Assembly (NCBI GenBank): GCA_964411255.1
Contig: CAYPKD010000006.1
Coordinates: 67,097-131,096 of the forward strand
DNA: 64,000 nt
Direction of reading: 5' to 3'
Source: an uncultured Gammaproteobacteria bacterium
GTDB taxonomy: Bacteria > Patescibacteriota > Patescibacteriia > UBA11705 > DATKZF01
Shown: positions 19,867 through 59,503 of the stretch, one piece after another
How the letters are laid out: each line of letters begins with the position of its first letter
Position numbering within the stretch: position 1 is the first letter of the stretch
The notes under the pieces: model-generated
The model's database searches: none
Told to the model about the DNA's origin: nothing
The model's input: the letters and a program-made list of their open reading frames with translations, nothing else
Made by a program: the position numbers and the translations under genes

Positions 19867-19930
19867 CCCAATCAAGCATCTTTGATTGGGTTCCCAGCTT
19901 TGTTTAGTATAATTACTGTGCAAAGCTGGG
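19867..19930 (+). repeat. Array element copy 8.
   Basis: Hairpin 1 is cccaatcaa-gcatct-ttgattggg. Hairpin 2 is cccagctttg...caaagctggg, with TATAAT in its loop. Confidence 0.8.
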
Positions 19931-19962
19931 CAAAGTTGACACAATACAAAGGAGACGATATA

Positions 19963-20244
19963 ATGGGAAATTCGTTTGAGGAACTTGAAAAAAAAGTGAT
20001 GCAAGACCAGGTTGCCAGAACAGCAGCCATTGAAAACCGCCTGCGTCGAAAATTCGGAGAAAAGTTTGAGATTCGTCGCAGACAGCAAGGCCTAAGTATC
20101 AAAAAGCTGGCTAAAGCAGCCAAAGTTTCAGAAACTCAGGTCAGACGGGCGCTCCATCGAGAACTCGGCGGCAATCTCCAGCTCAAAACCATTGTCCGAA
20201 TCGCTGATGTTCTTGGTTTGAATATCTCTATTTCTGCCAGGTAA
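19963..20244 (+). CDS. XRE-family helix-turn-helix transcriptional regulator, HigA-like with an N-terminal extension.
   Basis: An AGGAGA RBS is present. The HTH reads QGLSIKKLAKAAKVSETQVRRALHRE...LKTIVRIADVLGL. The track start is 19882. Confidence 0.6.
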   Translation: MGNSFEELEKKVMQDQVARTAAIENRLRRKFGEKFEIRRRQQGLSIKKLAKAAKVSETQVRRALHRELGGNLQLKTIVRIADVLGLNISISAR

Positions 20245-20251
20245 ACATCAA

Positions 20252-20315
20252 ACCCAACCGCACTCATGCAGTTGGGTTCCCAGTTTTGTTTGCTAATAAT
20301 AGTAAATAAAACCGG
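20252..20315 (+). repeat. Array element copy 9.
   Basis: Hairpin 1 is ACCCAAC-cgcactcatgca-GTTGGGT. The linker is TCCCA. Hairpin 2 is cccagtttt...aaaaccggg. Confidence 0.8.
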
Positions 20316-20360
20316 GACTTGTTTCTTGACAAACAAATCTTTCCAAAGTAGGAGGAAAAG

Positions 20361-33566: not shown

Positions 33567-33621
33567 ACTGTAATGAGTAAAGGGTAATTTGTAATTCGTA
33601 ATTAGTAATTGGGCTTCAGGA

Positions 33622-40200: not shown

Positions 40201-43200
40201 TTGATTATTAGATACATTTGTTAAATTTAATGAGGGAGAAGAAGGTCCGATCACTAAATCATTATAATATGTGCTGGCAGTACCATCTGGTCCAATAAAA
40301 ATTTCTGTATCACAAGAGGCGTCATTACAAGACCTAACTTGCGCTTGAATAATAGTTGTATCCGCCACGTTTACAATAAATTCGCCTATCTGGCCAATAC
40401 GATTGCCTCCACCCACATTAGTATTATTGAAATGCAGTCTGGCTGAAACAATATTTGATTGAGTATCAAATGTATGAGTTACCAAAGTGTCATAGTCAGA
40501 TAATGCAAATCCTGTCACAATTGAATCTCCAGAAACCGAACCCTGATCAGTTGTCAAATTATCAAGACTTGATAAAGTTAACCATTTTGAATCATTTACT
40601 GAATCGGTTACAACTGCGCTGTCATTTGTTGAGACTTGAATCCTATAGCTTTTTGGCAAATATTGCGCACCCCAGCCACCCTGAGTTGAATCACCGCCAA
40701 AGTATATTTTTATTTCACCAATATCCTTTGCAGAGGCTAAATCAACCATTAAACGAGAATCAGTAACATTATCATTTCCCCAACCGTTCTGTGTGGCATC
40801 ATAAAGGCCATCATTGACCAATGTGGCAGCATTTCCAGCATTTGAATCGGACGCGGTGGCAACCCCTCCTGCAGACTGAAGAGCTTCGTTTAATGTCTGG
40901 CCTGTTAAAATCTGATCCCACGAAATTGAATCCCATGCTACTTGCGATCCGGCATCTTTTATCTCAGAAGTGTAATTACCACTTGTAATTGAAGAGTAAT
41001 CAGCTTGAACATCTGAACTGGCTAAAGCAACATTATAAATTTTTAATTCTTCAATTATTCCATCCATCGTGATATTTGTACTGCCGTCAATTATGTCCAC
41101 TTCAGTAGTTGTTCCGCCGATTCTCCATCCATTCCCAGGATTTGGAATACTGGCAATTGCTGTTATCTTTGTCGCTACCTGATTGCCATTAACATACAAA
41201 CTTAATTCACCGGTGCCACCGTCCCAAACTCCGGCCAGATGATACCATTCGTCAATATTTAAATTTGACACTGGGTATGTAATGACATCAGATGTACCGG
41301 CAGCGCTTCTAATTATGTGAGTAATATCGCCGGAATCGTCATTTAAATATAATCCATAACCATAAGTAGTTCCTCCTTCAATAAAAATAACTTGTCTATT
41401 ATTATTATTGTTTCTTTTTACCCACGCTTCAATAGTATGAGCAGTATGAGCATCAAGCATACCATCACCTTCACCTGTTGTTGCCAATACTATGCTATCA
41501 GAACCATTAAATTCCAATGCGGCTGTTCCAAATTGCCCAGATGTCCAAGTAGTATTTGACGCTATGCCATTATATAATGAAGTTTCTTCAGATATCGCAT
41601 CACCTGTAGCTTCATTAAAATGATACAATGCTTCGGTATTTGCATTTACAACCAATTCATTACCCACTGACAATTCAATATGATCTGTATTATAAGTTGT
41701 CTGAAGAAAAGTTCCTGTAAAGTCTACCTGATCTGAATCAGTAAATGACCCTCCCGATTGAAGAAGCCTTGCATTACTGACCGTTACCTCAATAAGACTT
41801 GTATCATATGTATATTCAGCAGGTGTTAAAAAGTGCCAATCTTTTACATCAACTTGCGTATTTAATTCTGAAACATAAGTGATCTTAACATTATCGAGCT
41901 TAACTTGACCTGAGCCATCGCTTACTAAAAATGCTTTAAATAATAATTGATTATTATCTGTTGGAAATGTATTTAAATTATTATTTATTTCTGTGGCCGT
42001 ATTATACGAAGAAATCGAAGTTCGTAATTCACTGACTGAACGAGATTTGTCTGAAATTTTCACTTCATCAATTTTTCCAGTAAACCTATCGCCAGCTCCA
42101 ATATTTTTTGCTCCCATTAACATTTGTACATCAGTAGCCTCAGTCACTGTTACCAGATTATATGAATCATCTCTGCCGACTTCGACACCATTACGATAGG
42201 CAACAATTGAATTACCATCTTTAACAATTGCCACATGCTGCCATGTGTTTAACTGAATAACCGCATTACTTAAATACTCACCTTGCGATGTCCAAAAACT
42301 AATTTGTCCTGTATTTTTTATCCCAAACCACCAATATGTATTAATTGAATTATTCCATTTTGTTGAAATGGCGCTATATGTACCAGCATAGCTTGTCGGG
42401 TATATCCAGGCTTCCCAGGTCGCATCTGCTTCACCATTTAAAATGGTATCTGTTCCAAAATTCACATAATCATCAATACCATCAAAACTATAAGCATTAT
42501 CATATTGCCCTGATACGCCGGTTGTAACTCCCTGATTTGTCCCATTATATCCATTTCCACTTGAGTCAATAACAGCGCCACTGGTTTCATCAAGATGCCA
42601 TAATGCCTTTGTATTACTGTCAGGTGTAGCTCCATGTGAAATACTGGTCCAATTTGATCCGTCATAATATTGCCAGGTTGCGCCATCATCATCAGATAAT
42701 TGGTAATAAATCTCAGCATTTCCAGTTTTTGTTGCTGTTTCAACAAAAGTATCCCAAGCATTTACTTCCGGAGCAGAAAAATTATTCATCGGCACTACTG
42801 TCGGGCTTTCGTCATTATAAATAGTTGAAGCAATATTTACAGAATTTATTTTTGGAGTTGAAAAATCAGGATCCATTGATGACAAGTATAATTTGTATTG
42901 AAAATATTGATCACTTGAAGCATTGATTGATTCACCGGAAGCAGTTGTATAATATGTTGATGACGAACCATCAGGTCCTATAAAAGTTTCAGTATCACAT
43001 AAAGCATCATTGCAAGAGCGAGTTTGGAATTGCGCATTTCCTATTGTTTGAGTTTGTTCAGAACCAAAAGCTGCAGTTGGTTCTGGATTCGTCCATTTGC
43101 GCACACGAGCATTATCAAATTCATGTGTACCGGAATAAAATGACCAAGACGGTTTCAAATCACTTTCTGTAGAATATGTGGAAGTATAATTTGTAGTCCA

Positions 43201-45279
43201 TGTATCCCCGCTATCAGTGCTTTGTTCATAATAGGCACCGCCACTGGCTCTCATTCTAACTCGTACATCATAATCAGTATTAACAGTCCATGAACCTGTA
43301 ACTCCAGGACGGCTGGTACCATCCTCATATACTGATGCATTAACAGTGGAAGCAGCGCCAGAACCTGGATTATAAAATGCATATACTTGATTAGGATAGC
43401 TTGAGCCTGTGCCGCTATCATGCCAGCCAACCATAATTGCGTCATAACTTGCATTATTCGCAGTCCATTCATAATCGTATTCAAATGAAATGTCGCTTCT
43501 TGAAAATGTTGCATTTGAAATAACACTTTTATTCCAAGATCCATTTGTTGTACGGATAAAATTTAATACTCCGCCTGCTTCAATAATTTCATTTTCCGGT
43601 ATATCCGTTTCAGTCCATTTTGCAATATCGATTACTCCGTCATTAAAATCATCAAATAATAAAAACGTATTATATCCATTAGAAGAAGATACTGCTGAAT
43701 CATTATCATAATACACATAAATAGTATGAAGAGAAGATGCAGAGATGGACGGAACTTCAACCCAAACCACAGCATTTGTTGATGCAGTAGATTCTTGAAT
43801 CCAATAGTCAAGTTCTGTCGTGCCATCAAAATCAGTAAACCTCAAATCACTAAAATCTGAATTCATATCTGCATCATATATTATTTCAATTCTTACTTGA
43901 TGATCAGATAATGAACTGCCATTTAATGTATTGTCAATTGTTATTGGTTTTCTTTTTTCCCATGAGTAGCTAAACCAGTTCGTTGATAACAAATCATCAG
44001 ACCACGAAATTTCATTCCAAGGAACTATTTGACCGGCATTAAATATATCAGAAGAATATTCTCCTGGTGACTTATAACCACCCTGAGCATGATCGCTGAT
44101 GGTTGTTTGATCTAAAACGGTATTCCAAATTGCTATTTCGTCCATATAGGCATCAAGGAATGTTACTCCAGTATATCTAGTACCGACCCTTACATTTGCA
44201 CCCAAATCAGGATTAAATCCTGAACCCGTATCAATTAAAGTTCCATCGAGGTATATTTTTGTCTCAGTAACGCTGGCAGTTAAAGCCACATGATACCAAG
44301 TATCATTAGACAATTGTGATGAGGGGATCTCTACCAATGAATTAAAACAAATATTTCCATTTGTGTCTGGACAATTAGCGCCTGAAGTATAATCCTGTAG
44401 AAACCACCAATTTCCGCCGCTTCTGCCATCCAATAAATATTCCGCTCCTCCATTTATATTTGATTTATTAAACCAAAATTCTAAAGTCATCTCGCTTGGA
44501 TTACCCAAATCATCTGTAATTTCCAAATAATCATCTATACCATCAAATTTTATGCCATTATTAAATTTTCCAATAACACCCTGGTCGGCGCCGTATCGAT
44601 CCGCATCATACCCATGCCCAGAATCATCAATTGCATCTCCGCTGGCTTCGTTTAGATGATATAAAACTAATGTGTCTGTAGTAGCTACAATTTCATTCGG
44701 GCCTAATTCCAGATGATCAGTGTTAAAAATAATATCTTCATAAGTGCCCAGATCAAATTCTCCCTGGGTATCATCATTGATATCGTTATTTATCGAAGTT
44801 AGCTGGGCTTTTCCAGAAACAAATTGAATTTTACCAGCGTCATATGAATATTCGGTGGCATCATTAAAATCCCAACTGGTTTGTTCAGTTGCGGCATTAC
44901 TAAAGAAGAATGGCACAGCAGATATTATTCCAGTCACCAATATAATAATTACAGCCAAACTAATTCCATGCAATCCGACCTTCCGTCTAATATGATAGTG
45001 TTTTTTCAATGCGCGAACTTTGTGATGTCGTCCGAGCCCAATATTTTTTGTAAACAAGTGAAGATTCTCCGGTTTATATAAAATATAAAATGGCAAAGAT
45101 AAAATTAATAGCTTCAATTCAAGTATTGCAATTATCCAAATGGAACTAAGACGATTAATAAATGATTGCTTATGTAATTGTTTTTGTTTTTTATGTATTA
45201 CATAAGCTAAATGAAGAATTGCATGTTTCCATTTTTTTAAAAATGCATTTGTTTTTCTTTTTTGTTTTCTTTCTGCCAT
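37249..45279 (-). CDS. Giant surface protein of 2676 aa with repeated LamG/concanavalin-like domains, a poly-Gly linker and a C-terminal peptidoglycan-binding domain.
   Basis: The ORF is continuous. There is an N-terminal TM helix. Several LamG_3-type blocks (L.HLDE..G...D.SGNG.NG....FDGIDDY) are present. A GGGGGGGGGGGG stretch is present. The C-terminal stretch LQILLQCLGYFPEDVIASGQFGSTTEQAVKEFQAAHGIDMAGFVGPGTREAL is a PG_binding_1-like domain. Confidence 0.85.
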   Translation of the reverse strand: MAERKQKRKTNAFLKKWKHAILHLAYVIHKKQKQLHKQSFINRLSSIWIIAILELKLLILSLPFYILYKPENLHLFTKNIGLGRHHKVRALKKHYHIRRKVGLHGISLAVIIILVTGIISAVPFFFSNAATEQTSWDFNDATEYSYDAGKIQFVSGKAQLTSINNDINDDTQGEFDLGTYEDIIFNTDHLELGPNEIVATTDTLVLYHLNEASGDAIDDSGHGYDADRYGADQGVIGKFNNGIKFDGIDDYLEITDDLGNPSEMTLEFWFNKSNINGGAEYLLDGRSGGNWWFLQDYTSGANCPDTNGNICFNSLVEIPSSQLSNDTWYHVALTASVTETKIYLDGTLIDTGSGFNPDLGANVRVGTRYTGVTFLDAYMDEIAIWNTVLDQTTISDHAQGGYKSPGEYSSDIFNAGQIVPWNEISWSDDLLSTNWFSYSWEKRKPITIDNTLNGSSLSDHQVRIEIIYDADMNSDFSDLRFTDFDGTTELDYWIQESTASTNAVVWVEVPSISASSLHTIYVYYDNDSAVSSSNGYNTFLLFDDFNDGVIDIAKWTETDIPENEIIEAGGVLNFIRTTNGSWNKSVISNATFSRSDISFEYDYEWTANNASYDAIMVGWHDSGTGSSYPNQVYAFYNPGSGAASTVNASVYEDGTSRPGVTGSWTVNTDYDVRVRMRASGGAYYEQSTDSGDTWTTNYTSTYSTESDLKPSWSFYSGTHEFDNARVRKWTNPEPTAAFGSEQTQTIGNAQFQTRSCNDALCDTETFIGPDGSSSTYYTTASGESINASSDQYFQYKLYLSSMDPDFSTPKINSVNIASTIYNDESPTVVPMNNFSAPEVNAWDTFVETATKTGNAEIYYQLSDDDGATWQYYDGSNWTSISHGATPDSNTKALWHLDETSGAVIDSSGNGYNGTNQGVTTGVSGQYDNAYSFDGIDDYVNFGTDTILNGEADATWEAWIYPTSYAGTYSAISTKWNNSINTYWWFGIKNTGQISFWTSQGEYLSNAVIQLNTWQHVAIVKDGNSIVAYRNGVEVGRDDSYNLVTVTEATDVQMLMGAKNIGAGDRFTGKIDEVKISDKSRSVSELRTSISSYNTATEINNNLNTFPTDNNQLLFKAFLVSDGSGQVKLDNVKITYVSELNTQVDVKDWHFLTPAEYTYDTSLIEVTVSNARLLQSGGSFTDSDQVDFTGTFLQTTYNTDHIELSVGNELVVNANTEALYHFNEATGDAISEETSLYNGIASNTTWTSGQFGTAALEFNGSDSIVLATTGEGDGMLDAHTAHTIEAWVKRNNNNNRQVIFIEGGTTYGYGLYLNDDSGDITHIIRSAAGTSDVITYPVSNLNIDEWYHLAGVWDGGTGELSLYVNGNQVATKITAIASIPNPGNGWRIGGTTTEVDIIDGSTNITMDGIIEELKIYNVALASSDVQADYSSITSGNYTSEIKDAGSQVAWDSISWDQILTGQTLNEALQSAGGVATASDSNAGNAATLVNDGLYDATQNGWGNDNVTDSRLMVDLASAKDIGEIKIYFGGDSTQGGWGAQYLPKSYRIQVSTNDSAVVTDSVNDSKWLTLSSLDNLTTDQGSVSGDSIVTGFALSDYDTLVTHTFDTQSNIVSARLHFNNTNVGGGNRIGQIGEFIVNVADTTIIQAQVRSCNDASCDTEIFIGPDGTASTYYNDLVIGPSSPSLNLTNVSNNQYFQYKIYLDKNNLSTSPQFSDLSVSAFGTYSEIKPFIYPSNSLQVPGVIEWQTFEETAIKPAGSELYYQLSFDNGTTWYWNDGSSWMDINNGQTSSADTILSYHFSNDSGDIIDNSSYNNDATNYGASQDVIGVFGNAIYLDGIDDYLEAPYLAELNLESTDFSIEFWLKTLDSDGFILKKYSGELGGDAWAVDIASNNLRFYDGTSWINSGINVADGQWKYIAIVADDSADSLSFFIDGELITTDSFNDILGNLYPLYIGKEVDDGFFEGTIDELRISNSIRTADDIILAMNLYNSAIEINNSILDFPTTNSQLLFRSFLGSDGSVTPNLDNIRVKYKYANNNSPVTTTPASIMQATDGSGFVSFETDVSDADNEPTRLMVEYSDDNGANWYDPCLDSALVDSGTVDLINGNTYQIGTGDPIDTDTGPITVTVVWDTKSALNENGSLDGIESSTIQVRVRAYDGISAGSYTDSSSFSIDNVVPSGLASLFAVSSTSNSINYNWIATTTETNFNHYELWYGTAQAAVQNRSAGAFEWDNDNDANLQNMSAFSTVITNLAAGTQYYAKIWAVDDWGNEEDANIISYTTDAGGGGGGGGGGGGSSAPSSSLTSSIGSGIDTFSIVDFSGINIGDIGMLGVNILADTGSTALFDIFGTQKINIKMINDDSIKVTLPNGQDYILKVSDRIQVDLDNNICNDFELYLNRIGGGIADMTIKKVIGYKIDGLNPNSLIKSPNNSAVYYYGKDCKRHVFPNSLVYETWYENFDNIQIISSNNLASIPISDNVTYRPGIRLVKIISIPKVYAVSANGTLRWLSTEEIAVALYGENWASYVDDVPDAFFINYKIGKDIESSLDYIVNEEILAAETIDIDKGLAFTGTEARVGVNLIVQNPILDSNESASVPKDQSCASNIEFKSFLSIGMNSSEIKELQILLQCLGYFPEDVIASGQFGSTTEQAVKEFQAAHGIDMAGFVGPGTREALNKYQ

Positions 45280-48588: not shown

Positions 48589-51018
48589 ATGCTAGAAGAC
48601 AAATTAAACAAAAACTTCAAAAATATAATTGCCAAGTCTTTTCAATTGGCAAAAGTCACTTCATGTCCTCAAGTTTTGCCTTCGCATATGCTTTTAGCTT
48701 TATTAAAGCAAAAAGGAACAATTGCCAATGAAATTTTGCGTAACAAATCTCTAGAAAATAAAATACTCAATTTATTAAATCAATATAAAAGTGAAAAACC
48801 AATACGATCAATGCCAAAACTAGCATTATCTTCAGAGCAAATTATCCTACGCGCAATAAAAACAGCTTATGAATTAAAACATCCGTACATTGGCACAGAA
48901 CATTTATTCTACGCTCTAATTTCAGATATTAACACTGATTTTAAAACTATTTTTACAAAAAAAATTAATCAAAAATACATTAAAAATCAAATTAAAGCCC
49001 GATTTAAGGGGACTTCACGATTTCCAGAAATAAGAGATATGTTTAACTTTTTACCATCAGATAACATTTCAGACTTAAGCTTATTAGAACAAGACAATAA
49101 ACAGGGATTATTAAGCTATTTTTCAATTGATTTAACAGATCTGAAAAATCAAAAAGACTTTGTACCTTTGATTGGAAGAAAAAAAGAAATTGAACAGATG
49201 ATTCAAATACTGTGCAGGAAAAATAAAAACAATCCTTTGCTTTTAGGAGATCCTGGCGTTGGAAAAACCGCCCTGGTAGAGGGTTTGGCGCAAAAAATCA
49301 CCAAAGGCGAAGTGCCGGAAGTTTTATTTGATAAAAAAATTGTTGCCTTAGACATTGGCTCATTAGTTGCCGGCACTATGTACCGCGGAGATTTTGAAGC
49401 TCGGGTAAAACAAATTTTAGAAGAAATTAAAAACGATCCAAAAATAATTCTTTTTATTGATGAAATTCACAATATTACAGGCGCTGGATCAGCCAATGGG
49501 TCATTAGATGCTGCCAACCTTTTCAAACCGCTTTTAGCCAGAGGCGATTTAAAATGTATTGGCGCGACTACAGACCAGGAATACAAAAAGCATTTTACAC
49601 GCGATGCTGCCCTGGCCAGGAGATTTCAGGCTTTGCATTTGGCTGAACCAAACAGGACTGAAACAATTGATATATTAACCGGATTAAAAACATGTTATGA
49701 AGATTTTCATCAGATAAAAATTACTGACAAGGCTATATCAGTAGCAGTTGATTTGAGTACTAAATACATTCCTGAAAGGTTCCAGCCTGACAAAGCCTTG
49801 GATCTTATTGATGAAGCAGCTGCCAAAATCAAAATTAATAACAATCAAATAAACGACAAGCTTAAAAAAATTAAATTAATTGAAAAACGCATTAATGAAC
49901 TGCATGAGCAAAAGGAAAAAGCGATTTTAGAAGAAAACTATCATCAGGCCATTAATATCCGGGATGAAATTAATAAAATGAAAAAAAGTCTTTCCATAGA
50001 AAAAAACAAGCAATCTCAACCTGAAACTTATCCAATTTTAACAATTGCTGACATTCAGCAAATATTAGCTCAAAAACTTGATATTGATTTGGAAAAAATT
50101 AATACTTTCGGACAGGGGAATTTAAATGAACTGCCGCAAAAACTAACTGATAAAGTAATTGGCCAGGACAAAATTATTGATAAAACCTGCCAAATTCTAA
50201 AAAGGTCATACACTGGCCTGCAAAACAATAATCAGCCACTGGCCACCTTTATTTTTGCCGGGCCAAGCGGTGTGGGAAAAACGTATTTAGCTGAAACCTT
50301 GGGTGAGACCTTATTTGAAGGAAAAAACAATCTCATCCGAATAGACATGTCTGAATTCACCGAGCGTTTTAATATGTCAAAATTACTGGGCGCCCCAGCT
50401 GGCTATGTGGGTTATCAGGAAGAAAATAAATTCACTGACCAGGTTAAGAAAAAACCTCACAGTATAATATTGCTGGATGAAATTGAAAAAGCACATCAAA
50501 GCGTCTTTAATATTTTTCTTCAAATATTTGATAATGGTCAGTTGACAGATGCTTCTGGACAAATCATTTCTTTCCGTCAGACAATAATTATTATGACTAC
50601 AAATCTGGGAAATAAAAACTCGCACAAAACCATTGGGTTTGGGAAAGAGTCAGCTCAAGAAACTCAAAACCAATCGTTGTCTGAAATCAAAAAATTCTTT
50701 TCACCTGAATTTATCAACCGAATTAACGAAATTTTAGTTTTTAACAGTTTAGACTTACAAAATTTAGAAAAAATAGCTACAATAGAATTAGATAAACTAA
50801 AAAAACAAACTGCCAATTCTGGTAGAAGTCTTAATTTTTCTTCAGGTATTTCCAAATTACTGGCCACTGAATGTGCTGAAAATTCAAATAATGCCAGGGC
50901 CCTAATTAAACTTATTGAAACAAAAATTATTACTCCAATCTCTGAGAATTTAATCAACAATCCTCAAAAAAAACAAATTGTTATTGAAACTCAAAATAAC
51001 AAAATAAATATAAAATAA
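48589..51018 (+). CDS. clpC: ClpC-like AAA+ chaperone ATPase with two nucleotide-binding domains.
   Basis: Clp_N-like repeats are present. The first Walker A is GDPGVGKTA and the second is GPSGVGKT. A short UVR-like linker (EENYHQAINIRDEI) is present rather than a long ClpB M-domain. Confidence 0.85.
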   Translation: MLEDKLNKNFKNIIAKSFQLAKVTSCPQVLPSHMLLALLKQKGTIANEILRNKSLENKILNLLNQYKSEKPIRSMPKLALSSEQIILRAIKTAYELKHPYIGTEHLFYALISDINTDFKTIFTKKINQKYIKNQIKARFKGTSRFPEIRDMFNFLPSDNISDLSLLEQDNKQGLLSYFSIDLTDLKNQKDFVPLIGRKKEIEQMIQILCRKNKNNPLLLGDPGVGKTALVEGLAQKITKGEVPEVLFDKKIVALDIGSLVAGTMYRGDFEARVKQILEEIKNDPKIILFIDEIHNITGAGSANGSLDAANLFKPLLARGDLKCIGATTDQEYKKHFTRDAALARRFQALHLAEPNRTETIDILTGLKTCYEDFHQIKITDKAISVAVDLSTKYIPERFQPDKALDLIDEAAAKIKINNNQINDKLKKIKLIEKRINELHEQKEKAILEENYHQAINIRDEINKMKKSLSIEKNKQSQPETYPILTIADIQQILAQKLDIDLEKINTFGQGNLNELPQKLTDKVIGQDKIIDKTCQILKRSYTGLQNNNQPLATFIFAGPSGVGKTYLAETLGETLFEGKNNLIRIDMSEFTERFNMSKLLGAPAGYVGYQEENKFTDQVKKKPHSIILLDEIEKAHQSVFNIFLQIFDNGQLTDASGQIISFRQTIIIMTTNLGNKNSHKTIGFGKESAQETQNQSLSEIKKFFSPEFINRINEILVFNSLDLQNLEKIATIELDKLKKQTANSGRSLNFSSGISKLLATECAENSNNARALIKLIETKIITPISENLINNPQKKQIVIETQNNKINIK

Positions 51019-52026
51019 ATGGCAGATGAAAATTCACGCCGCATTGATCCGAAAAAAAAAGCTGATATTCGAAAAAGAGCTGGAAAAGTCTTTGATGAAG
51101 AAACAAAAAAAGTAAAAAAACAGCAAGCTGGAGCTCAAAAGCCAAAAGCAGCCCCAGTTTCTTCTGATATGCCAAAGCCTGGTCCAGCAGCTATGCCAAA
51201 AACAGGATCTGCAGAACTGCCAGAAGACCAAGCCATGCAAGGAACCGCTGAAACGCAAACAGATCAGTCTATGGCTAAAGCCGCTGGAACGCCTGAAACT
51301 GGTGCGCAAGCAGCTCCATCAGAATATGAAGGTCCGCAAAAAGTTGGTAAAGGGCCTTTTGCTCCCAGTATTTCTAGAGTACCAGAAGCAGTAACCAAAC
51401 AACAACTAGAAGCACATGAAAAATTTAGGAAAGGGCTGGAAAAAAGGGAAAAAGAACGTGCGGAAAAAGGAACTGAGCCAGCTCCGCCCCCTACTCCTCC
51501 AGCTCAAACCCGGCCCAGACCAGGCATAGCGCCTGAAGAAGGAGGACCGCCAGGTACTAGCCCAGTAACTGCCTCAGAAAGACCAATACCGCCAGCTCCA
51601 GGAGTTAAAGAAACCACTCCGGCAGCTCCGGGTATTGTTCCCTCATATGAACCTGGGAAACTCGAACAAGCGAAAAAAGCAGGCCAGTTAAAAAGAGAAC
51701 AAGTTAAAGCAAAAAAAGACAAAAAAGCTGCCAAACGCCCTGGGCGACGAAAAAAAGCAGAAGGGCCAATCCCTGGCGGAATCAGCGCCAAAGGAGCTGT
51801 ACCCGGAACAAAAGGAGGAATAAAAGGAGCTTTGGGCTTAGGCAAAAAAAAGGGAAAACGAAGCGATACAGACTTGGCAATGGAAATCATAAAAAAACTG
51901 GCCAGAGCTATCGCAAGAATTATTGCCACCCTGGTGCCAATGGTTTGTTGCAACCCATGCTGCTGGTGGATTATTGCCGTTATGGCCATTGTATTAATAA
52001 TCGCCTCCTTACTCGGTCTTCTATAA
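51019..52026 (+). CDS. Low-complexity Pro/Ala/Lys-rich protein with a C-terminal TM anchor.
   Basis: The start abuts the clpC stop. Much of the product is PAPPPTPPAQTRPRPG-type low-complexity sequence. The C-terminal stretch VCCNPCCWWIIAVMAIVLIIASLLGLL is a TM anchor. G+C is higher than in the neighbouring DNA. Confidence 0.55.
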   Translation: MADENSRRIDPKKKADIRKRAGKVFDEETKKVKKQQAGAQKPKAAPVSSDMPKPGPAAMPKTGSAELPEDQAMQGTAETQTDQSMAKAAGTPETGAQAAPSEYEGPQKVGKGPFAPSISRVPEAVTKQQLEAHEKFRKGLEKREKERAEKGTEPAPPPTPPAQTRPRPGIAPEEGGPPGTSPVTASERPIPPAPGVKETTPAAPGIVPSYEPGKLEQAKKAGQLKREQVKAKKDKKAAKRPGRRKKAEGPIPGGISAKGAVPGTKGGIKGALGLGKKKGKRSDTDLAMEIIKKLARAIARIIATLVPMVCCNPCCWWIIAVMAIVLIIASLLGLL

Positions 52027-53330: not shown

Positions 53331-56048
53331 ATGAAGAAATTACTTAACATTTTTGTAATTGTATTTTTTTTAATAATACTGCAAACAAGCTCTGCTATAG
53401 CAGCTGATAATATTTTTTGTGATTGTCCAGCTTCTGGAGCGCCAGAGCAACCTGGAGGCAACTGTATTGGTCCCTGCCAAACGAATGCTGGCAATAAAGT
53501 GTGCCAATGCGCTGATTTAACCACTAAAACTGGGACTGAAAATCAAACCCAGTGCGATACAGCTTGCGGGCAAAAACCAGACGACGCACAATCTGTACCA
53601 ACAGATTATACAATATGCAACTGCAAATCTGATATTCCACACACCAGTGAACAAGACCCGTGTAAAATTCCGTGCAGCAAAGCTGAATTTCAATCTACTG
53701 CAGACAGCTTTGTTTGCGTTTGCAAAGATGCGCCCCTGACAGCAACAAAATTAACTGATGCTACTCAGCCAGAACGAGAAGATAAATGCAAAACCCAGTG
53801 TGTTTCTGCTGCAAAGCCAGCAACTCCAACTACAACGACTCCAGCTGGCCAGCCTGCAGCTAAAGTTTCTATAGAAGCGCCTAATTTATATTTTCCTATT
53901 CCTGATCTTCAGCTTTCTAATATTACTGTATCTAAAGAAGGCGGAGATAAAATATCAGTTCCCTGGATAGCAGAATACATAATTGCCATATATAAATATT
54001 CCCTTGGAATTGCATCAATATTAGCTGTAATAATGGTAATGATTGCCGGATTATTATATTTAACCTCTGCAGGGAATCCGCAAAGGATCGGACAAGCCAA
54101 AAATTACATTATTGGGGCAATTTCCGGGCTGGTGATTTTAGTCAGTTCATACATGATATTAAGTCTTATCAGCCCGAATTTAACTAAATTAGGACCAATA
54201 GTAATACAATCAGTTGAAGCAGAATCAATAGACGAAAGTGAATTTGGCCTTCTTGAAACAACTGATGTACCAGTTGCTGGTGATGTCCCATATTTTGCCC
54301 AAACTGATAAAAGATGGGCATGTTTCCCTTTTACAGGCAATGAATGCAGCTATCAGCTTGATGTCACGCCAAAGCTTGCCTGTGGCACTGATGGCTACTC
54401 TGCTTCATTCCCTGATGTAAGTTCACCACCTGAAAGAGGCATATTGGGATGCAAGCATAAAAATATTGAATTTAAGGGAATGAATTATTGTGAATGGCTT
54501 GAATCTCAATATCAAATTTCTGCAATGTGTAACAATCCAAACATGAAAGATTCTGCCTGGTGTGAAAACAACCCTTATGGAAAAAATAATTTTGTTGAAT
54601 ATTGCAAAAAAGTAACAATAAAAAATAAAGATGGTAAAAGCACCAATCTTAATGTTATTCAATCATCAGGCTGCGGAATGACTTCATCAGCAATGGTGCT
54701 GAATTTTTATGGCATATCGGTTACTCCGCCAGATGTTGCTTTATGGATTCAAGAAAATGGAATTCGCTCCCCAAGTCCAGGATCTTCTGAGCCTCCAACA
54801 TGCTGTGGATTTGTTCCTGTTGGAATGAAAGTATTAGCCCAGCATCATAGTCTGGATACAAAAAAAATGAGCAGCGCCAAAGAAAATCCTGAAGTAATGT
54901 CTCTTTTGCAAAAAAAGTTACCTTTGATTTTTCATGTATCAACCAGACAAAACCATCCAAACTGTAAATTTACCAAAGGAGGTCACTTTATTGTGGTCAA
55001 AAACTATGCTGGTGGTGTTTTCGGTATTAATGATCCAAGCCACCCAGGCATAAAAACTGCATCAGCTTCAGATATATGGGATGAATGTGCTGTTCACAGT
55101 GTCACTTATTTTTATAAACCTGGAGCGTATGGGGAATTTCCGAGCCTCCAAACGGCAGATACTCAGGGAACAAGTCAGACAAGCATAGTCGCTGGTGACT
55201 GCAAATCTGTACCTGATCTTTCTCCATACGATAAAAGCACTGGATGCTATAATGCTGACTTGCAATGTACACCTCAAGATATTAAAAACGTCGCTGAAGC
55301 TTGGGGGCAAACAAATATGATAACTGCGCCAAACAGTTGCGCCCGGACAGCTTCGAGAATATTACGAAATGCTGGTTGCCAAATTCCTGGATCACCATGG
55401 ATTAAATCATTAAAAACTCAGTTAAAAAATATTGGGTGGAAAGCATTAATAATTCATGGTAGTGCTTCTAGTAAATATCCAAACCAAATTCCGATAGGCG
55501 TCTTATTTCAATGTAATGCTACAGGAACTTTACAGCATGTATTTATTTCAACTGGACAAGGAAATATTGTTGAATCAGGCACTGACTGGAGCTCTGGTTG
55601 TACAGCAACCGGCTGTCCAAAACAAAATTCAAAAACTTGCGGACAAAATAATTTAAAAGACAAATGCGCACCAGATGATAATTCAATTCCAGGCATGAAT
55701 GCTTTAACCGGGTCTCCTTCTAAGAATTACAAAGACTGCGGTGAAGGGAAAAACCAATGTGTCAATACAAAATCAGGTGCTGCTTCAAAAGCAAGTATTG
55801 TCTTTTTCCCTCTATTAGATTCTGCCAATGAAGGCTCAGGATGCTGTAAAAGTGATTTAATTAGATATTCCAAAGGCATAAGTAATTCAAAAGATGGAAT
55901 TAAAACAAGTCAAGCTACATGCCAAAGCTTATCCGGATCATGGACGGCTGGGGGAAGCTGTTCAGAGCCGCTTAATCCAGTACAAGCTGTCTCAGGAGTT
56001 TTAGCACCAAAAGGATGTGGCTGCCAGGGACAAGGATGGTGTAAATAA
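53331..56048 (+). CDS. Secreted protein with a Cys-rich N-terminal region, a VirB2/TrbC (T4SS pilin)-like two-helix membrane domain and a C39-like cysteine peptidase domain.
   Basis: The signal peptide is followed by the pilin-like block EYIIAIYKYSLGIASILAVIMVMIAGLLYLTSAGNPQRIGQAKNYIIGAISGLVILVSSY. A papain/C39-like block SSGCGMTSSAMVLNFYG follows, with a downstream H-containing region. It is a paralog of the 56055 gene over the first ~280 aa. Confidence 0.6.
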   Translation: MKKLLNIFVIVFFLIILQTSSAIAADNIFCDCPASGAPEQPGGNCIGPCQTNAGNKVCQCADLTTKTGTENQTQCDTACGQKPDDAQSVPTDYTICNCKSDIPHTSEQDPCKIPCSKAEFQSTADSFVCVCKDAPLTATKLTDATQPEREDKCKTQCVSAAKPATPTTTTPAGQPAAKVSIEAPNLYFPIPDLQLSNITVSKEGGDKISVPWIAEYIIAIYKYSLGIASILAVIMVMIAGLLYLTSAGNPQRIGQAKNYIIGAISGLVILVSSYMILSLISPNLTKLGPIVIQSVEAESIDESEFGLLETTDVPVAGDVPYFAQTDKRWACFPFTGNECSYQLDVTPKLACGTDGYSASFPDVSSPPERGILGCKHKNIEFKGMNYCEWLESQYQISAMCNNPNMKDSAWCENNPYGKNNFVEYCKKVTIKNKDGKSTNLNVIQSSGCGMTSSAMVLNFYGISVTPPDVALWIQENGIRSPSPGSSEPPTCCGFVPVGMKVLAQHHSLDTKKMSSAKENPEVMSLLQKKLPLIFHVSTRQNHPNCKFTKGGHFIVVKNYAGGVFGINDPSHPGIKTASASDIWDECAVHSVTYFYKPGAYGEFPSLQTADTQGTSQTSIVAGDCKSVPDLSPYDKSTGCYNADLQCTPQDIKNVAEAWGQTNMITAPNSCARTASRILRNAGCQIPGSPWIKSLKTQLKNIGWKALIIHGSASSKYPNQIPIGVLFQCNATGTLQHVFISTGQGNIVESGTDWSSGCTATGCPKQNSKTCGQNNLKDKCAPDDNSIPGMNALTGSPSKNYKDCGEGKNQCVNTKSGAASKASIVFFPLLDSANEGSGCCKSDLIRYSKGISNSKDGIKTSQATCQSLSGSWTAGGSCSEPLNPVQAVSGVLAPKGCGCQGQGWCK

Positions 56049-56054
56049 AAAATT

Positions 56055-57737
56055 ATGAAAAAAACTTTTATATTTTTAATATTTGTCTTTGCTTTTATAT
56101 CAATCGCTCCTTTAGCAAGTAGCGCCCATATTTTTTGTAATTGCCCTGTACCTGCTGGCCATGATTGCTCAGCTGCTTGTCAAAATCAGCCAAACCAAGC
56201 CACAGTTTGCCAATGCGAGGGTGCGATGGTTACGTTTCCTTCTGTCAGCACTTCTGACTGTGTACAAAAATGTGAAAAAACCTATAACCCTCAAAATGTA
56301 GCTGAAAAAAAATACAAAATTTGTAATTGCACAGTCGGCACTCCATATGCTGATGATGATATATGCAAAAAAACATGCGCTGCTAAATCTGAATTTAAAG
56401 ACAAAACTGTCTGCGCCTGCACTGAATCAACGAAAGAACCAAAACTGGCAGAAGAAAAAAGTTTGCCAGAGAAAGAAACAGAATGTGAAAAATATTGTAA
56501 ACCAGAAGATAAGCCAACGCCAACGACCACAACTGAAGCAGCGCCGCCAGAATTTGGAGAAGCAATAAAGCCAAAAATTTATGTTGCTATCCCTGACTTA
56601 AAACTTTCAGATTTAAAAGTTCCTATTGGCGGTGATGAATCAGTACAGATTAGCTTTCCCTGGATTGCTCAATATATTATTGCTGTTTACAAATATGCAT
56701 TGGGCTTTGCCTCAATTCTAGCAGTTATTATGATAATGGCTGCAGGAATTTTATATCTTGTCTCAGCAGGCAATCCCCAAAGAATCAGTCAGGCAAAAAA
56801 TTATATTATTGGCGCAATCACAGGCTTAATAATCATTGTAGGTTCATATACAATCTTAAATTTGATCAGCCCCCAGCTAACTCAATTAGGCTCAGTTGAA
56901 CTAAAAACCGTAACTGAAGCCGAACTAGAAGAAGAATTTATGAATGCTGAAATCGAAGGACGAACCAGCTCTTCTCAAAATAATATTGCTTTTGCTTCTA
57001 TCCCCATTGAACACCGCGGCAAAGAATGCAACATTCCCAACACAGCTAGCGGTATTGGCGATCCGACTCTAATGGAAAAATATCCGGATACGGCATGTTT
57101 AGCAGTTGGGCACAGAAATGTAGCTTCAATTTCCCAAGTCACAATTCATGAAGGCAATACTGCTGAAAGAAATGTCAAACAATGGCTATATGGGAAAAAA
57201 GGATATGTTAAAACCGGAAAAGTAACAAGCAGCCATTACACTATTGAAAGAAGCGGCAAAATATATCAACATTTGGATGAAGCTAAAGTCGGAATTCATG
57301 CGCCAGGACAAAATTCAATTTCCATTGGAATTGATCTAACCACAAATGTATTTGCTGGATATAGATATGGAAAAATAGATGAATGCCTAGAAAACTGCAA
57401 AAAAGGCGTGTATCCCTGTAAAGGCGAAAAAAATAATAAAGAACTGGCTATTAAAAATTGCACGCCTGTTTATACAGCCGCTCAGATTTCATCTTTAAAA
57501 AAATTATTAAGTAATATTGCTGCCAGAACTGCATATAAATTTGATTTTCAACATACCTGGTCTCATTGCGAAGGAGGTGGCCATTCAGACCCTAGAAATT
57601 TCAAATGGGAAGATATTGGGCAAAACACTCAGCAACATAGTGATCGGGACAAACAAAAACCAAAAAGGTTATGCCGTTATTACCCAGAATACGAGGAAAG
57701 AGTAAGAGAACTGGCAGATCAAATTTTCGGACAATAA
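56055..57737 (+). CDS. Secreted protein with a Cys-rich N-terminal region, a T4SS-pilin-like domain and an N-acetylmuramoyl-L-alanine amidase (Amidase_2/PGRP) domain.
   Basis: The pilin-like block is QYIIAVYKYALGFASILAVIMIMAAGILYLVSAGNPQRISQAKNYIIGAITGLIIIVGSY. The amidase_2 signature is SSHYTIERSGKIYQHLDEAKVGIHAPGQNSISIGIDL, with an H...C zinc-ligand pattern (TWSHCEGGGHSDP) that parallels T7 lysozyme. Confidence 0.65.
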   Translation: MKKTFIFLIFVFAFISIAPLASSAHIFCNCPVPAGHDCSAACQNQPNQATVCQCEGAMVTFPSVSTSDCVQKCEKTYNPQNVAEKKYKICNCTVGTPYADDDICKKTCAAKSEFKDKTVCACTESTKEPKLAEEKSLPEKETECEKYCKPEDKPTPTTTTEAAPPEFGEAIKPKIYVAIPDLKLSDLKVPIGGDESVQISFPWIAQYIIAVYKYALGFASILAVIMIMAAGILYLVSAGNPQRISQAKNYIIGAITGLIIIVGSYTILNLISPQLTQLGSVELKTVTEAELEEEFMNAEIEGRTSSSQNNIAFASIPIEHRGKECNIPNTASGIGDPTLMEKYPDTACLAVGHRNVASISQVTIHEGNTAERNVKQWLYGKKGYVKTGKVTSSHYTIERSGKIYQHLDEAKVGIHAPGQNSISIGIDLTTNVFAGYRYGKIDECLENCKKGVYPCKGEKNNKELAIKNCTPVYTAAQISSLKKLLSNIAARTAYKFDFQHTWSHCEGGGHSDPRNFKWEDIGQNTQQHSDRDKQKPKRLCRYYPEYEERVRELADQIFGQ

Positions 57738-57738: not shown

Positions 57739-59037
57739 ATGATTTTTATTTGCAAAAAATGCGATTCGCAATTCACAAAGTGGTCAGGCAGATGCCCTGA
57801 GTGCCAGGCTTGGGGAACCATTGAAAAATCAAAAAGCAAAAATCAAAAAGTAAAAAAAGGTGATGCGAAAATTGTCTCACTTGACCAAATAGATAATCTC
57901 AAGCTGGAGCGCATAAAGACAGGTCTCGAAGACTTTGATCAATTTCTAGGTGGGGGGCTGGTAGATGGCAGCCTTCTTTTAATTGGCGGCGAGCCAGGAA
58001 TTGGTAAATCAACCATTGCCTTGCAGCTTTTAAGCAAATTCAATCAAGACTCTCTTTATGTCAGTGGCGAAGAGTCAGCGCAGCAAATCAAACTTCGGGC
58101 TCAAAGATTAAGCATTGATAAATTAAAAATCTTAAATACAAATTCTCTTGAAAATATTTTGTATCATTTGCAGACATCAAAACCAAAAATTGCCATCATT
58201 GATTCAATTCAGACAATTTACTCTTCAGAAATAGAAAGCGAACCTGGAAATGTCTCGCAAATCAAAGTAATTGCTGTTAAACTCTTAGAACTGGCAAAAA
58301 AACAAAATACTGCTTTAATCTTAATTGGACACATAACCAAAGACGGCGCAATTGCCGGGCCAAAAACTTTAGAGCATTTAGTTGACGCAGTTTTTTATCT
58401 TGAAGGCGAACGAAATTCTGATTTAAGAATTATAAGGTCAATAAAAAACAGATTTGGCTCAACTAATGAACTTTTAATTTTTGAAATGACAAATAGGGGA
58501 TTGCAAATAGTTGAAAATCCTTCAAAAATCTTTTTATCCCCTACTCCAATTGATGTTGCTGGCACTGTAACCAGCGCAGTACTTGAGGGTTCACGATGTT
58601 TTTTAGTTGAGGTTCAGGCGCTGGCCAATCAGACTGTTTTTGGATATCCGCAGAGAAAGTCCAGCGGCTATGATTTGAACAGGCTTCAATTGCTATTAGC
58701 TGTGCTGACAAGACGGGCAAATTTGAATTTTAATAATCAGGATGTACATTTAAATGTCACTGGTGGATTTAAAATAAAAGAAACTGCTCTAGACTTAGCA
58801 GTTGCTCTGGCCTGCGCCTCTGCCCTATCAAATCAGGCATTAAATCCAAAGACTCTGGTTTTTGGTGAATTAGGCCTTGCTGGAGAGGTTAGAACAGTTA
58901 AACAGGCTGAAAAACGCCTAAAAGAAGGCGAGAAATTGGGTTTTGAGAGCGCTATTGTTCCATTTAATACAAAATCACCTGCTAACCTTAAAATACATCA
59001 AATAAAGACAATTTCAGAAGGAGTGCAGCTTTTGTAA
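57739..59037 (+). CDS. radA: DNA repair protein RadA/Sms.
   Basis: An N-terminal C4 zinc finger (CKKCDSQFTKWSGRCPECQAWGT) is followed by a RecA-like Walker A (GGEPGIGKST) and a Lon-like C-terminal domain. Confidence 0.9.
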   Translation: MIFICKKCDSQFTKWSGRCPECQAWGTIEKSKSKNQKVKKGDAKIVSLDQIDNLKLERIKTGLEDFDQFLGGGLVDGSLLLIGGEPGIGKSTIALQLLSKFNQDSLYVSGEESAQQIKLRAQRLSIDKLKILNTNSLENILYHLQTSKPKIAIIDSIQTIYSSEIESEPGNVSQIKVIAVKLLELAKKQNTALILIGHITKDGAIAGPKTLEHLVDAVFYLEGERNSDLRIIRSIKNRFGSTNELLIFEMTNRGLQIVENPSKIFLSPTPIDVAGTVTSAVLEGSRCFLVEVQALANQTVFGYPQRKSSGYDLNRLQLLLAVLTRRANLNFNNQDVHLNVTGGFKIKETALDLAVALACASALSNQALNPKTLVFGELGLAGEVRTVKQAEKRLKEGEKLGFESAIVPFNTKSPANLKIHQIKTISEGVQLL

Positions 59038-59287: not shown

Positions 59288-59503
59288 ATGAAAAAAGGAA
59301 CCTGCAGTAAAAAAAAGAAATTTTACGGATTAATTACAATCACTGATAAAGGACAAATCGCCATTCCAATTGAATTGCGCAGAGATTTAGGTATTAACAA
59401 AGGCGACAAATTGCTTATTATAAAAAGAACTGACAACAAAGGAATTAATCTATTAAAGGCAAATACAATTGACGATTTTATTGAAAAATTATCAAAAGAT
59501 TAA
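59288..59503 (+). CDS. AbrB/MazE/SpoVT-type DNA-binding protein.
   Basis: The stretch GLITITDKGQIAIPIELRRDLGINKGDKLLI is a typical swapped-hairpin barrel motif. The product is 71 aa. Confidence 0.6.
   Translation: MKKGTCSKKKKFYGLITITDKGQIAIPIELRRDLGINKGDKLLIIKRTDNKGINLLKANTIDDFIEKLSKD

Follow-up and report, generated by a model that had tools for sequence, protein, structure and literature searches.

A pilin-like membrane hairpin fused to predicted cell-wall hydrolases in a conserved gene cassette of Patescibacteria

Candidate Phyla Radiation (CPR) bacteria, or Patescibacteria, make up a very large and mostly uncultured share of bacterial diversity, and those in culture live attached to other microbes. 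A single CPR species is genetically tractable, and in it a type IV secretion system (T4SS) and arrays of pilins are reported to be essential (PMC12857230). The VirB1-like hydrolases of Gram-positive T4SSs, which work in monoderms, combine a glycosidase with a cysteine peptidase of the CHAP or NlpC/P60 type (PMC12102498), and modular type IV pilins number more than 1,200 proteins in 264 architectures (PMC8179133). Here we analyse two adjacent genes, called A and B, in a stretch of 64,000 nucleotides (the window) from contig CAYPKD010000006.1 (positions 67,097 to 131,096 of the forward strand; assembly GCA_964411255.1), which is deposited as an uncultured Gammaproteobacteria bacterium and placed by GTDB in the Patescibacteriota. 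Each gene encodes a membrane hairpin related to the VirB2-like pilins of CPR bacteria, joined to one or two domains that are predicted to cut the cell wall. No published description of VirB2-type pilin–hydrolase fusions was found in the full-text literature searched, most subscription journals being outside its coverage; what comes closest is the mention of 'T4SS pilin' domains in Paceibacteria proteins that are highly expressed (PMC10936435) and, for Southlakia, of essential genes for peptidase and lysozyme that lie downstream of virB4 (PMC12102498).

A first-pass annotation of the window, made from the letters alone, had proposed two paralogous proteins at this place, and we recovered both open reading frames exactly at the positions it had given (Table 1). 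The two proteins are 43% identical across their first ~300 amino acids (aa) in a BLASTP comparison (E 3e-60) and have no similarity thereafter, in agreement with the earlier statement that the C-termini diverge past a shared block. By hydropathy, both have a signal-peptide-like N-terminus with an Ala-rich cleavage motif, as had been claimed. The Cys-rich N-terminal region ascribed to both proteins is also real: each N-domain contains 16 Cys, out of totals of 48 in A and 24 in B. A Pfam search with the N-domain of A gave no match, and in the family alignment this domain is missing from the homologues P0004 and P0005, so it is optional within the family. The motifs quoted for the two C-terminal parts were found at the expected places (SSGCG at A445; SSHYTIERSGK... 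at B392-428).

To judge the relation of the hairpin to pilins we relied on profile comparisons. The T4SS_pilin family (PF18895, cutoff 26.6 bits) matched A at aa 212-280 with 33.0 bits and B at aa 204-270 with a marginal 27.5 bits; the homologue P0007 scored 32 bits. A profile of the hairpin block, with 122 columns and built from 12 family members, retrieved 107 further short stand-alone proteins of 81-215 aa from a word-indexed database (E down to 7.5e-29), and nearly all of these were independently annotated with PF18895, many of them also with PF04956 (TrbC/VirB2). When the profile was aligned by hhalign with 26 pilins annotated with both families, the probability was 98.8% (E 5.7e-17) over positions 35-107, a stretch that consists of helix 1, the SAGN...AK loop and helix 2. 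At the level of sequence, these comparisons confirm homology between the hairpin of A and B and the VirB2-like T4SS pilins that CPR bacteria have. Its link to experimentally proven pilins is indirect and runs via CPR pilins with a double Pfam annotation. Neither A nor B has a PF04956 match at E ≤ 1, and a search of solved structures with the hairpin profile gave no pilin at E ≤ 10 and chance-level matches only. A hand-entered VirB2 sequence of Agrobacterium fell in register with the profile but at a non-significant hhalign probability of 0.7%, a comparison to which we give little weight either way, and NCBIfam returned only a sub-cutoff match, to a family of pilin-like proteins of a Mycoplasma integrative and conjugative element.

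The two-helix blocks had been called nearly identical in the first-pass annotation, and the hairpin cores of A and B indeed share 78% amino-acid identity, yet only 38% of the identical residues share a codon. Third codon positions in the hairpin are 45% identical, against a chance expectation of 31%, while the N-domains, at similar synonymous divergence, are 33% identical in amino acids. Recent gene conversion as the source of the likeness was ruled out by this codon analysis, which shows purifying selection on the hairpin far stronger than a passive membrane anchor would need. Selection of this strength suggests a specific partner with which hairpin and cytoplasmic loop are probably in contact.

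By hydropathy, A (~216-244, ~258-282) and B (~207-236, ~249-273) are each predicted to have two hydrophobic helices, joined by a loop of 14 residues of which two are basic (+2) and none acidic. By the positive-inside rule this loop should be cytoplasmic, and the N-domain and all of the heads are then predicted to lie outside the membrane, which agrees with the earlier proposal that the enzymes are placed at the cell surface. An AlphaFold2 model of B has helices at 205-236 and 241-271, a disordered linker at 277-320 and a head with a predicted local distance difference test score (pLDDT) of ~90; the linker of ~45 aa that follows the hairpin is acidic as well as disordered. The features by which a VirB2-type pilin can be recognised, namely a signal peptide, two transmembrane (TM) helices, a short basic loop and both ends outside, are thus all predicted for A and B, whereas with 905 and 560 aa neither has the small stand-alone size of such a pilin (~100-200 aa, ending after helix 2). 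The high Cys counts, together with DsbA-like genes near related fusions, fit oxidative folding outside the cell. In locus L023 a gene for a DsbA-like thioredoxin (7783-8529) stands directly upstream of Cys-rich hairpin fusions, and in locus L020 such a gene (6489-7172) lies ~3 kb upstream of them.

A and B belong to a large family. We searched 1.84 billion cluster representatives with the hairpin profile using HMMER and obtained 56,175 matches at E ≤ 1e-3, 11,351 at ≤ 1e-10 and 141 at ≤ 1e-30. A word-indexed homologue search with A had given 12 proteins, a number that understates the family. The best 150 matches were mostly proteins of 300-1,000 aa, and 124 of the 134 top single-hairpin proteins have at least 100 residues after the hairpin (median 200). 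The 107 stand-alone pilins, by comparison, are 142 aa long at the median and extend a median of 2 aa beyond the match. They cover only positions ~39-102 of the profile, against ~4-120 in the long proteins: among 122 of the latter, the N-terminal flank PKL..IP.L...PWIA.YI was matched in 118 and the C-terminal flank INP.L..L in 120. With flanks that are conserved in the long proteins and absent in stand-alone pilins, the fusions are a distinct subfamily with an extended hairpin module, and not a set of repeated accidental fusions.

The heads of this subfamily are overwhelmingly peptidoglycan hydrolases. Pfam scans of 144 representatives found Amidase_2 in 12, Peptidase_M15_4 in 10, VanY in 9, SLT in 9, Peptidase_C39_2 in 7, Peptidase_M15 in 5, NlpC/P60 in 5 and a GDSL lipase in 2-3, with M23, glucosaminidase, phage lysozyme and SLT_3 once each; the M15-type families overlap in these counts. 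T4SS_pilin was detected at E ≤ 1e-5 in only 73 of the 144, and several members of the gene cassette described below score 16-23 bits. As many members stay under the Pfam pilin cutoff, much of the family carries no pilin label in the databases.

The hairpin profile also led us to proteins of another kind. These 'polypilins' (P0128, at 9925-12387 of locus L012, and P0133, P0176, P0179 and P0196) have 6-8 tandem VirB2-like hairpins per chain and no other domain. In L012 the polypilin is followed by a short pilin and then by pilin+PKD and PKD-repeat proteins.

The head of B was identified as an Amidase_2 domain (aa 358-514; 47.5 bits, cutoff 26). Across nine divergent amidase-headed fusions, His365, the SHY at 393-395, His415, Asn420, Asp427, His504 and Asp512-Pro513 are invariant, and the head contains the motifs SHYTI, HAPG and GIDL. 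A profile search of PDB sequences with the amidase head gave the LysT endolysin, T7 lysozyme and clostridial amidases, and the best Foldseek match of the B model was AmpD (2y28; E 2.6e-4, probability 1.00), followed by PGRP-LE, LysCS and T7 lysozyme. The catalytic residues of the amidase head are hence present and conserved. The predicted metal site of B is His365/His504/Asp512, as in AmpD, an assignment based on motif comparison with the AmpD ligands. The first-pass annotation was right about an Amidase_2/PGRP-type amidase and wrong about its zinc ligands, which it gave as H...C; the third ligand is Asp512. Between the central motifs and sheet and the second zinc ligand, B has a Cys-containing insertion (CLxxCKxGxYPC...CTP, aa 430-500, ~57342-57554). 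In a manual motif comparison His510 appears to sit where T7 lysozyme and AmpD have their catalytic Lys.

In A, the C39-like cysteine peptidase domain that had been proposed is clearly present (Peptidase_C39_2, aa 445-569; 55.3 bits, cutoff 24), and PF03412 stays below its cutoff (20.5 against 22). The motif residues Cys448 (SSGCG), His552 (GGH) and Asp568 (NDP) were kept in all six homologues that carry the domain, and a profile of the head aligned these Cys, His and Asp motifs with those of the C39-like protein 3erv and of PCAT1, so that the catalytic residues are in place here as well. The best PDB match of the head was PeiR (8z4h), a pseudomurein endoisopeptidase (E 2e-4); full-length A had no match among the sequences of solved structures. 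A Cys-rich insertion of ~110 aa separates the VPYFAQ start of the domain from its nucleophile.

The last ~277 residues of A form a separate module, which we call domain X, since in P0007 the hairpin is followed by X with no C39 domain. Local hidden Markov model searches located the core of X downstream of the hairpin in a further six fused proteins, and in this analysis domain X was seen only downstream of pilin hairpins. In an alignment of 13 sequences, Cys670 (PNSCA/CHCA) and His736 (QHV/GHV) are invariant and position 748 (VES in A) is Glu or Gln in most. No Pfam family matched domain X even at E 10, and a word-indexed homologue search was empty. In its AlphaFold2 model, a confident one (pLDDT 83.6, predicted template modelling score 0.87), a helix begins at the Cys, and the His belongs to a strand. 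Foldseek gave nothing significant (best E 0.1 in the PDB and 0.035 in BFVD), and the weak neighbours were almost all of the papain fold: NlpC/P60 autolysins, MepS/Spr, CHAP endolysins, the type VI secretion system (T6SS) amidase Ssp1, C39 domains, phage tail lysins and cathepsins. Judging from the model and the alignment, domain X is probably a very divergent NlpC/P60/CHAP-like peptidase and a candidate new papain-fold family of wall peptidases. The first-pass annotation had overlooked domain X, the His/His/Asp zinc site and the membership of both proteins in a large family with a conserved cassette.

Table 1. Genes A and B, their parts and the adjoining genes (positions in the window)
Feature	Position	Strand	Evidence
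ClpC-like AAA+ gene; bounds the operon-like block upstream and directly abuts the next gene (0 bp)	48589-51018	+	Pfam, synteny
Lys/Pro-rich 335-aa protein, C-terminal TM segment with CCNPCCWW; variable cassette member	51019-52026	+	sequence
Membrane-anchored beta-propeller-like protein, 422 aa	52055-53323	+	weak PD40/Tricorn matches, synteny
Gene A, 905 aa: signal peptide, Cys-rich N-domain, extended hairpin module, C39-like peptidase, domain X	53331-56048	+	open reading frame, Pfam, family alignment
A, putative signal peptide, aa 1-24, MKKLLNIFVIVFFLIILQTSSAIA then AD	53331-53402	+	hydrophobic segment 1-29; predicted A-x-A cleavage site
A, Cys-rich N-terminal ectodomain, aa 25-178, 16 Cys, apparently 2 x 8-Cys repeats	53403-53864	+	Cys count
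A, extended hairpin module, aa 179-300	53865-54230	+	Pfam PF18895 aa 212-280, profile, hhalign
A, parts of the module: pre-hairpin flank PxL..IPDL...PWIAEYI; TM1 ~216-244; basic loop TSAGNPQRIGQAKN; TM2 ~258-282; post-hairpin flank ISPNLTKLG			
A, C39-like cysteine peptidase head, aa 311-606	54261-55148	+	Pfam Peptidase_C39_2 1.4e-14, PDB profile matches, 6 homologues
A, domain X, aa 629-905: candidate papain-fold peptidase, then Cys-rich tail	55215-56045	+	alignment, AlphaFold2, weak Foldseek
Gene B, 560 aa: signal peptide, Cys-rich N-domain, extended hairpin module, linker, Amidase_2 head	56055-57737	+	open reading frame, Pfam, alignments, AlphaFold2
B, extended hairpin module, aa 169-291; AlphaFold2 helices 205-236 and 241-271	56559-56927	+	Pfam, hydropathy, AlphaFold2
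B, zinc amidase head, aa ~340-560	57072-57734	+	Pfam Amidase_2 2.9e-12, invariant residues, Foldseek
radA, downstream boundary, 1-bp gap after B	57739-59037	+	Pfam, synteny

The neighbours named earlier, a ClpC-like AAA+ gene, a Pro/Lys-rich TM protein and a weak propeller, were all verified. From the clpC-like gene through the Lys/Pro-rich protein, the propeller, A and B to radA, the gaps are 0, 28, 7, 6 and 1 bp, and spacing of 0-28 bp throughout suggests that the block may be one operon. The same order, with a ClpC-like gene, a variable protein, a propeller of ~425 aa, two or three extended-hairpin fusions, radA and, on the opposite strand, recG, is recurrent. This cassette was found in seven genomes, recurring in L004/L011, L005, L009, L010, L014 and the contig of P0004, and propeller, fusions and radA stand together in 17 of the 27 loci of a metagenome scan. 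The Lys/Pro-rich protein has no Pfam match; homologues of 220-321 aa occupy the same position in L005, L015, L017 and L018. Every cassette examined has a homologue of the propeller directly upstream of the fusions, and in the different context of L006 a homologue is again found with hairpin fusions, which makes the beta-propeller-like protein a likely partner of the hairpin fusions. A sequence search of solved structures with it gave chance-level matches only.

The set of heads varies from one cassette to another. In gene order it is C39+X and then an amidase in the window; in L015, a close relative of the window, an amidase and then X without C39; in L005, two amidases; on the P0004 contig, an amidase, VanY and C39+X; and in L004, C39+X and an X-like head. 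Genes further downstream are ftsX, ftsE, a DPBB_1 protein, a SurA-like peptidyl-prolyl isomerase, divIC and murG. Fusions were also found in two contexts outside the cassette, L020 and L023, and these are housekeeping too (DsbA, LeuRS, RecJ, LepA, MurJ, POR, UvrA). L020 and the cassette L017 are on one contig of 763 kb, so this genome has at least two loci. The adjacency of clpC and radA is ancestral in Firmicutes (ctsR-mcsAB-clpC-radA-disA), and by analogy the cassette looks like an insertion into that arrangement.

The named relatives are Candidatus Kuenenbacteria and Candidatus Falkowbacteria, which we take to be members of the GTDB class ABY1. A published survey notes T4SS loci near recG and radA in ABY1 (10.1101/2025.01.22.634366). 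Some metagenome-assembled genomes with the CPR-type cassette are labelled 'uncultured Gammaproteobacteria' or 'Candidatus Bipolaricaulota' (L010 and L011, CAYSUN010000001.1 and CAZPYM010000001.1; P0012; P0132, HUT22232.1), and these labels are probably taxonomic errors.

The window as a whole is a low-GC (~0.35) stretch of chromosome with three tRNAs, large surface proteins and housekeeping genes for UvrD, a GatA-like amidase, LigA, GAPDH, an RseP-type M50 protease, Glu racemase, PGM, LemA, the ClpC-like protein, RadA and RecG. Between radA and recG, at ~59288-59503 on the plus strand (coordinates mapped manually from L001, which runs in reverse orientation), we noticed a small MazE-antitoxin-like gene, seen as a weak Pfam match via L001, and an open reading frame of 62 aa; the two may be a toxin-antitoxin pair. 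The GC content rises to 0.41-0.49 at 12000-22000, compared with 0.32-0.37 around it, and this may be a horizontally acquired island. Among the open reading frames of the GC-rich region (16299-18017, 18595-19863, 20361-22331, 23450-24481 and 25466-26314), several encode Cys-rich proteins in which MopE-type metal-binding motifs occur, and one is T4-RNA-ligase-like. On the minus strand, 37249-45279 encodes a giant surface protein of 2,676 aa, a candidate for adhesion or wall binding, in which four Laminin_G_3 domains are accompanied by DUF2341, a galactose-binding-like domain and, at the C-terminus, PG_binding_1. Two further minus-strand frames of 428 and 365 aa (32478-33764 and 33622-34719) have no Pfam match and overlap by ~140 nt, so that one start is probably mis-set.

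The first-pass annotation had also suggested that the hairpins could place the enzymes on a pilus-like structure; a link to a pilus or a T4SS was not supported. No VirB4, VirB6 or VirD4 gene was found in the window or in the 10 kb to its right, and the window contains no stand-alone major pilin. At no extended-module locus examined was a T4SS gene detected in the vicinity. A homology search of the 27 metagenome loci found no homologue of the VirB4, PrgI and TraC-like proteins of locus L013, and the precomputed annotations of the L004, L005 and P0004 contigs list no T4SS gene, L009, L010 and L014 not being in the query scan.

In L013 (1465-10463), PrgI, TraC-like and VirB4-like genes are followed by three long hairpin proteins of 686, 370 and 891 aa, the last with three hairpins, adjoining jag-yidC-rnpA-dnaA. 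L006 (2-4495) has a hairpin+NlpC/P60 protein, a four-hairpin+SLT protein and a propeller homologue (E 2e-29), followed by jag-yidC-rnpA. The L006 contig (7.6 kb) carries no T4SS gene, and we infer an association with a T4SS from the jag-yidC-rnpA neighbours that it has in common with L013. Its SLT and NlpC/P60 pair looks like a VirB1-type combination of SLT and peptidase split onto pilin hairpins, reminiscent of the VirB1-like hydrolases with two domains in Gram-positive T4SSs (PMC12102498). The hairpin proteins of both loci have the core only (positions ~26-120) and lack the N-flank, so by profile coverage these hairpin proteins belong to a different branch of the family from the subfamily of A and B.

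Domain identities, conservation of catalytic residues, family breadth and synteny are plain observations, and on these we built an explanation in which an exapted pilin hairpin serves as a membrane dock for hydrolases that act on the cell's own wall. We put its probability at about one half. A and B would be exported by Sec and remain tethered to the membrane as cell-wall hydrolases. The chain would enter and leave the membrane on its outer side, so that the N-domain and the heads would lie on the outer face, by the peptidoglycan. The head of B, a zinc amidase of the AmpD/T7-lysozyme type, should cut the bond between N-acetylmuramic acid and L-Ala, and the C39-like head and domain X of A should cut stem peptides or cross-links. 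The hairpin, too conserved for a passive anchor, would be a specific dock that holds a changeable set of hydrolases together with the membrane-anchored propeller partner, and the hydrolases might open or remodel the wall locally for growth, division or the passage of a surface appendage. We favour such a dock because of the subfamily-specific flanks, the constant housekeeping and envelope context and the propeller partner, and also because neither T4SS genes at the extended-module loci examined nor a stand-alone pilin in the window were found.

Several points weigh against this explanation. The content of heads changes quickly at the same locus, as the window, L015, the two-amidase genomes and the amidase/VanY/C39+X arrangement demonstrate, and effectors under diversifying pressure typically change in this way, more so than housekeeping autolysins. 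Remodelling of the own wall does not readily account for the GDSL lipase heads. A genuine T4SS cluster (L013) contains core-only relatives of the hairpin, and pilin arrays have been reported as essential for epibiotic growth of a cultured CPR bacterium (PMC10633639, PMC12857230). The strongly conserved cytoplasmic loop could be recognised by a T4SS ATPase just as well as it could serve a dock. Finally, a lack of virB4 within 10 kb does not mean that the genome is free of T4SSs: pilin genes are near virB4 in only 1,135 of 1,948 CPR assemblies (10.1101/2025.01.22.634366).

The same observations could mean that A and B are true modular pilins of the VirB2 type. A T4SS ATPase of the VirB4 type would extract the hairpin and build the protein as a minor or tip subunit into a pilus, with the N-domain and the heads on the exterior of the filament, where the heads would digest the wall of an attached host cell or replace the poorly detected VirB1 of CPR T4SSs. 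We consider this rather unlikely. The homology of the hairpin to CPR pilins and the selection on hairpin and loop are in its favour, as are the L013 locus, where extended hairpin proteins come immediately downstream of PrgI, TraC-like and VirB4 genes, and the L006 locus, where SLT-headed and NlpC/P60-headed hairpin proteins are adjacent to each other and near the same jag-yidC-rnpA. Diverse and rapidly shuffled heads, lipases among them, would also be expected. Both termini of VirB2-type pilins face the exterior of the pilus, as seen in F-type and T-type pilus structures, and the predicted topology of A and B is compatible with this. Published work reports poor linkage of VirB1 homologues to virB4 across most CPR classes, as well as an essential role of pilin arrays (PMC12102498, PMC12857230). 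On the other hand, no T4SS gene was detected near any extended-module locus examined, the proteins of L013, and also those of L006, lack the N-flank that defines the subfamily of A and B, and a major pilin is missing from the window. With ~170 aa at one end and 270-600 aa at the other, a homopolymer would presumably be precluded sterically, and the similarity to solved pilins and to the hand-entered VirB2 of Agrobacterium is not significant. Were A and B incorporated all the same, they would tentatively be the first modular VirB2-type pilins, conjugation-type pilus subunits with which an ultrasmall epibiont would extend a filament bearing amidases, peptidases, transglycosylases and also lipases, so as to breach its host's envelope or harvest it, and the family would replace the missing VirB1 function of CPR T4SSs.

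It is also conceivable, although improbable, that the hairpin anchors the proteins only for a time: it would serve for insertion by Sec/YidC and temporary retention, and cleavage in the conserved post-hairpin segment or in the linker would then release the heads as soluble lysins or scavengers at the zone of contact with the host. The conserved INP.L..L directly after TM2, the disordered acidic linker of ~45 aa and the two peptidase domains of A itself are consistent with such a release. Lipase and wall-hydrolase heads would suit harvesting by an organism with few biosynthetic pathways, as described for CPR bacteria in general (PMC11665869). Neither the conserved N-flanks nor an identity of 78% between paralogues at saturated synonymous sites would be needed for a purely transient anchor, however.

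A generic TM hairpin was named in the first-pass annotation as the case in which its proposal would fall. Such a hairpin, in otherwise ordinary membrane-anchored hydrolases, would resemble the pilin model by chance through its hydrophobic composition, which is very improbable. It would account for the narrow passing of the Pfam cutoff by B, the lower scores of several other members, the sub-cutoff NCBIfam match and the lack of a match to solved pilins, but the score is above the cutoff in both proteins and well above it in A and P0007, the profile retrieves annotated pilins with strong E-values, and the hhalign match extends over the whole hairpin including the SAGN...AK loop, by which the idea is largely refuted. 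Least probable of all is a prophage lysis cassette of a holin-like hairpin with an endolysin, or a bacteriocin-processing C39 peptidase: the amidase of B resembles phage endolysins and the classical role of C39 domains is the processing of double-glycine leaders (Pfam family description), but we rejected the former by the lack of phage genes nearby, the conserved clpC-like/radA position in many genomes, the lack of relatives in viral contigs and a signal peptide and large ectodomains unlike those of holins, and the latter since no ATP-binding cassette (ABC) transporter is fused to A or encoded by adjacent genes.

What emerges is a concrete family that can be recognised by sequence, in which a pilin-derived hairpin carries most kinds of peptidoglycan hydrolase within a conserved propeller cassette. 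It is partly invisible to annotation, with many members under the Pfam pilin cutoff and with heads such as domain X that have no family. With it, the location of the proteins in the membrane or a filament, the wall that is cut and the dependence of the cassette on a T4SS become testable questions. The analysis adds a candidate papain-fold family of wall peptidases and an example of a pilin module reused as a carrier of enzymes. With the exception of X the individual domain families are known, and neither membrane-anchored wall hydrolases nor modular type IV pilins are new as concepts (PMC8179133); a VirB2-type hairpin as the carrier of a repertoire of wall hydrolases in a propeller-radA cassette is apparently undescribed.

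The heads can each be set beside enzymes of known structure. The B head has the fold of the AmpD, T7 lysozyme and PGRP amidases and the His/His/Asp ligands of AmpD, but it would be tethered by a hairpin rather than cytoplasmic or phage-borne, and it has its Cys-containing insertion. The first head of A aligns in its Cys, His and Asp motifs with 3erv, and PeiR demonstrates that the fold can cut peptide bonds of a cell wall; the head differs in the Cys-rich insertion and in having no ABC-transporter partner. Domain X appears to follow the NlpC/P60 and CHAP enzymes (MepS/Spr, Acd autolysins, CHAP endolysins, T6SS Tae/Ssp amidases) in the order of its catalytic-type residues, with a Cys at a helix start, a His strand and a Glu/Gln, and its GHVG.S.G.G...ES resembles the NlpC/P60 signature HVGIY.G.G; unlike them, it has no Pfam match, no structural match better than E 0.035, and a long Cys-rich C-terminal extension.

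As whole proteins, A and B differ from each of the systems to which they come closest. The VirB1-like enzymes of Gram-positive bacteria have a single N-terminal TM segment or lipid anchor and are encoded inside the T4SS operon, whereas A and B have an internal anchor of the pilin-hairpin type, amidase, C39-like and X heads with no SLT, and genes outside a T4SS operon. In common with A and B, the VirB1-like PrgK, TraG and CwlT/TrsG/CD419 are membrane-anchored, extracytoplasmic wall hydrolases with several heads (PMC12102498). The VirB2-like pilins of Patescibacteria (PF18895; PMC10633639, PMC12102498, PMC12857230) have the same two-helix hairpin, short basic SAGN..AK loop and signal peptide, come from the same group of organisms and often stand in tandem copies; these pilins are short, end right after helix 2 and are often near virB4, while A and B have flanks on both sides, a Cys-rich N-domain, enzyme heads and a propeller-radA cassette with no T4SS gene nearby. 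The modular type IV pilins, such as PilB and PilC of Streptococcus sanguinis (PMC8179133), resemble the hairpin fusions in that a small pilin module carries alternative modules grafted onto it, but they belong to an unrelated superfamily with one N-terminal helix, their modules are mostly adhesive, and the incorporation of PilB into the filament has been shown experimentally.

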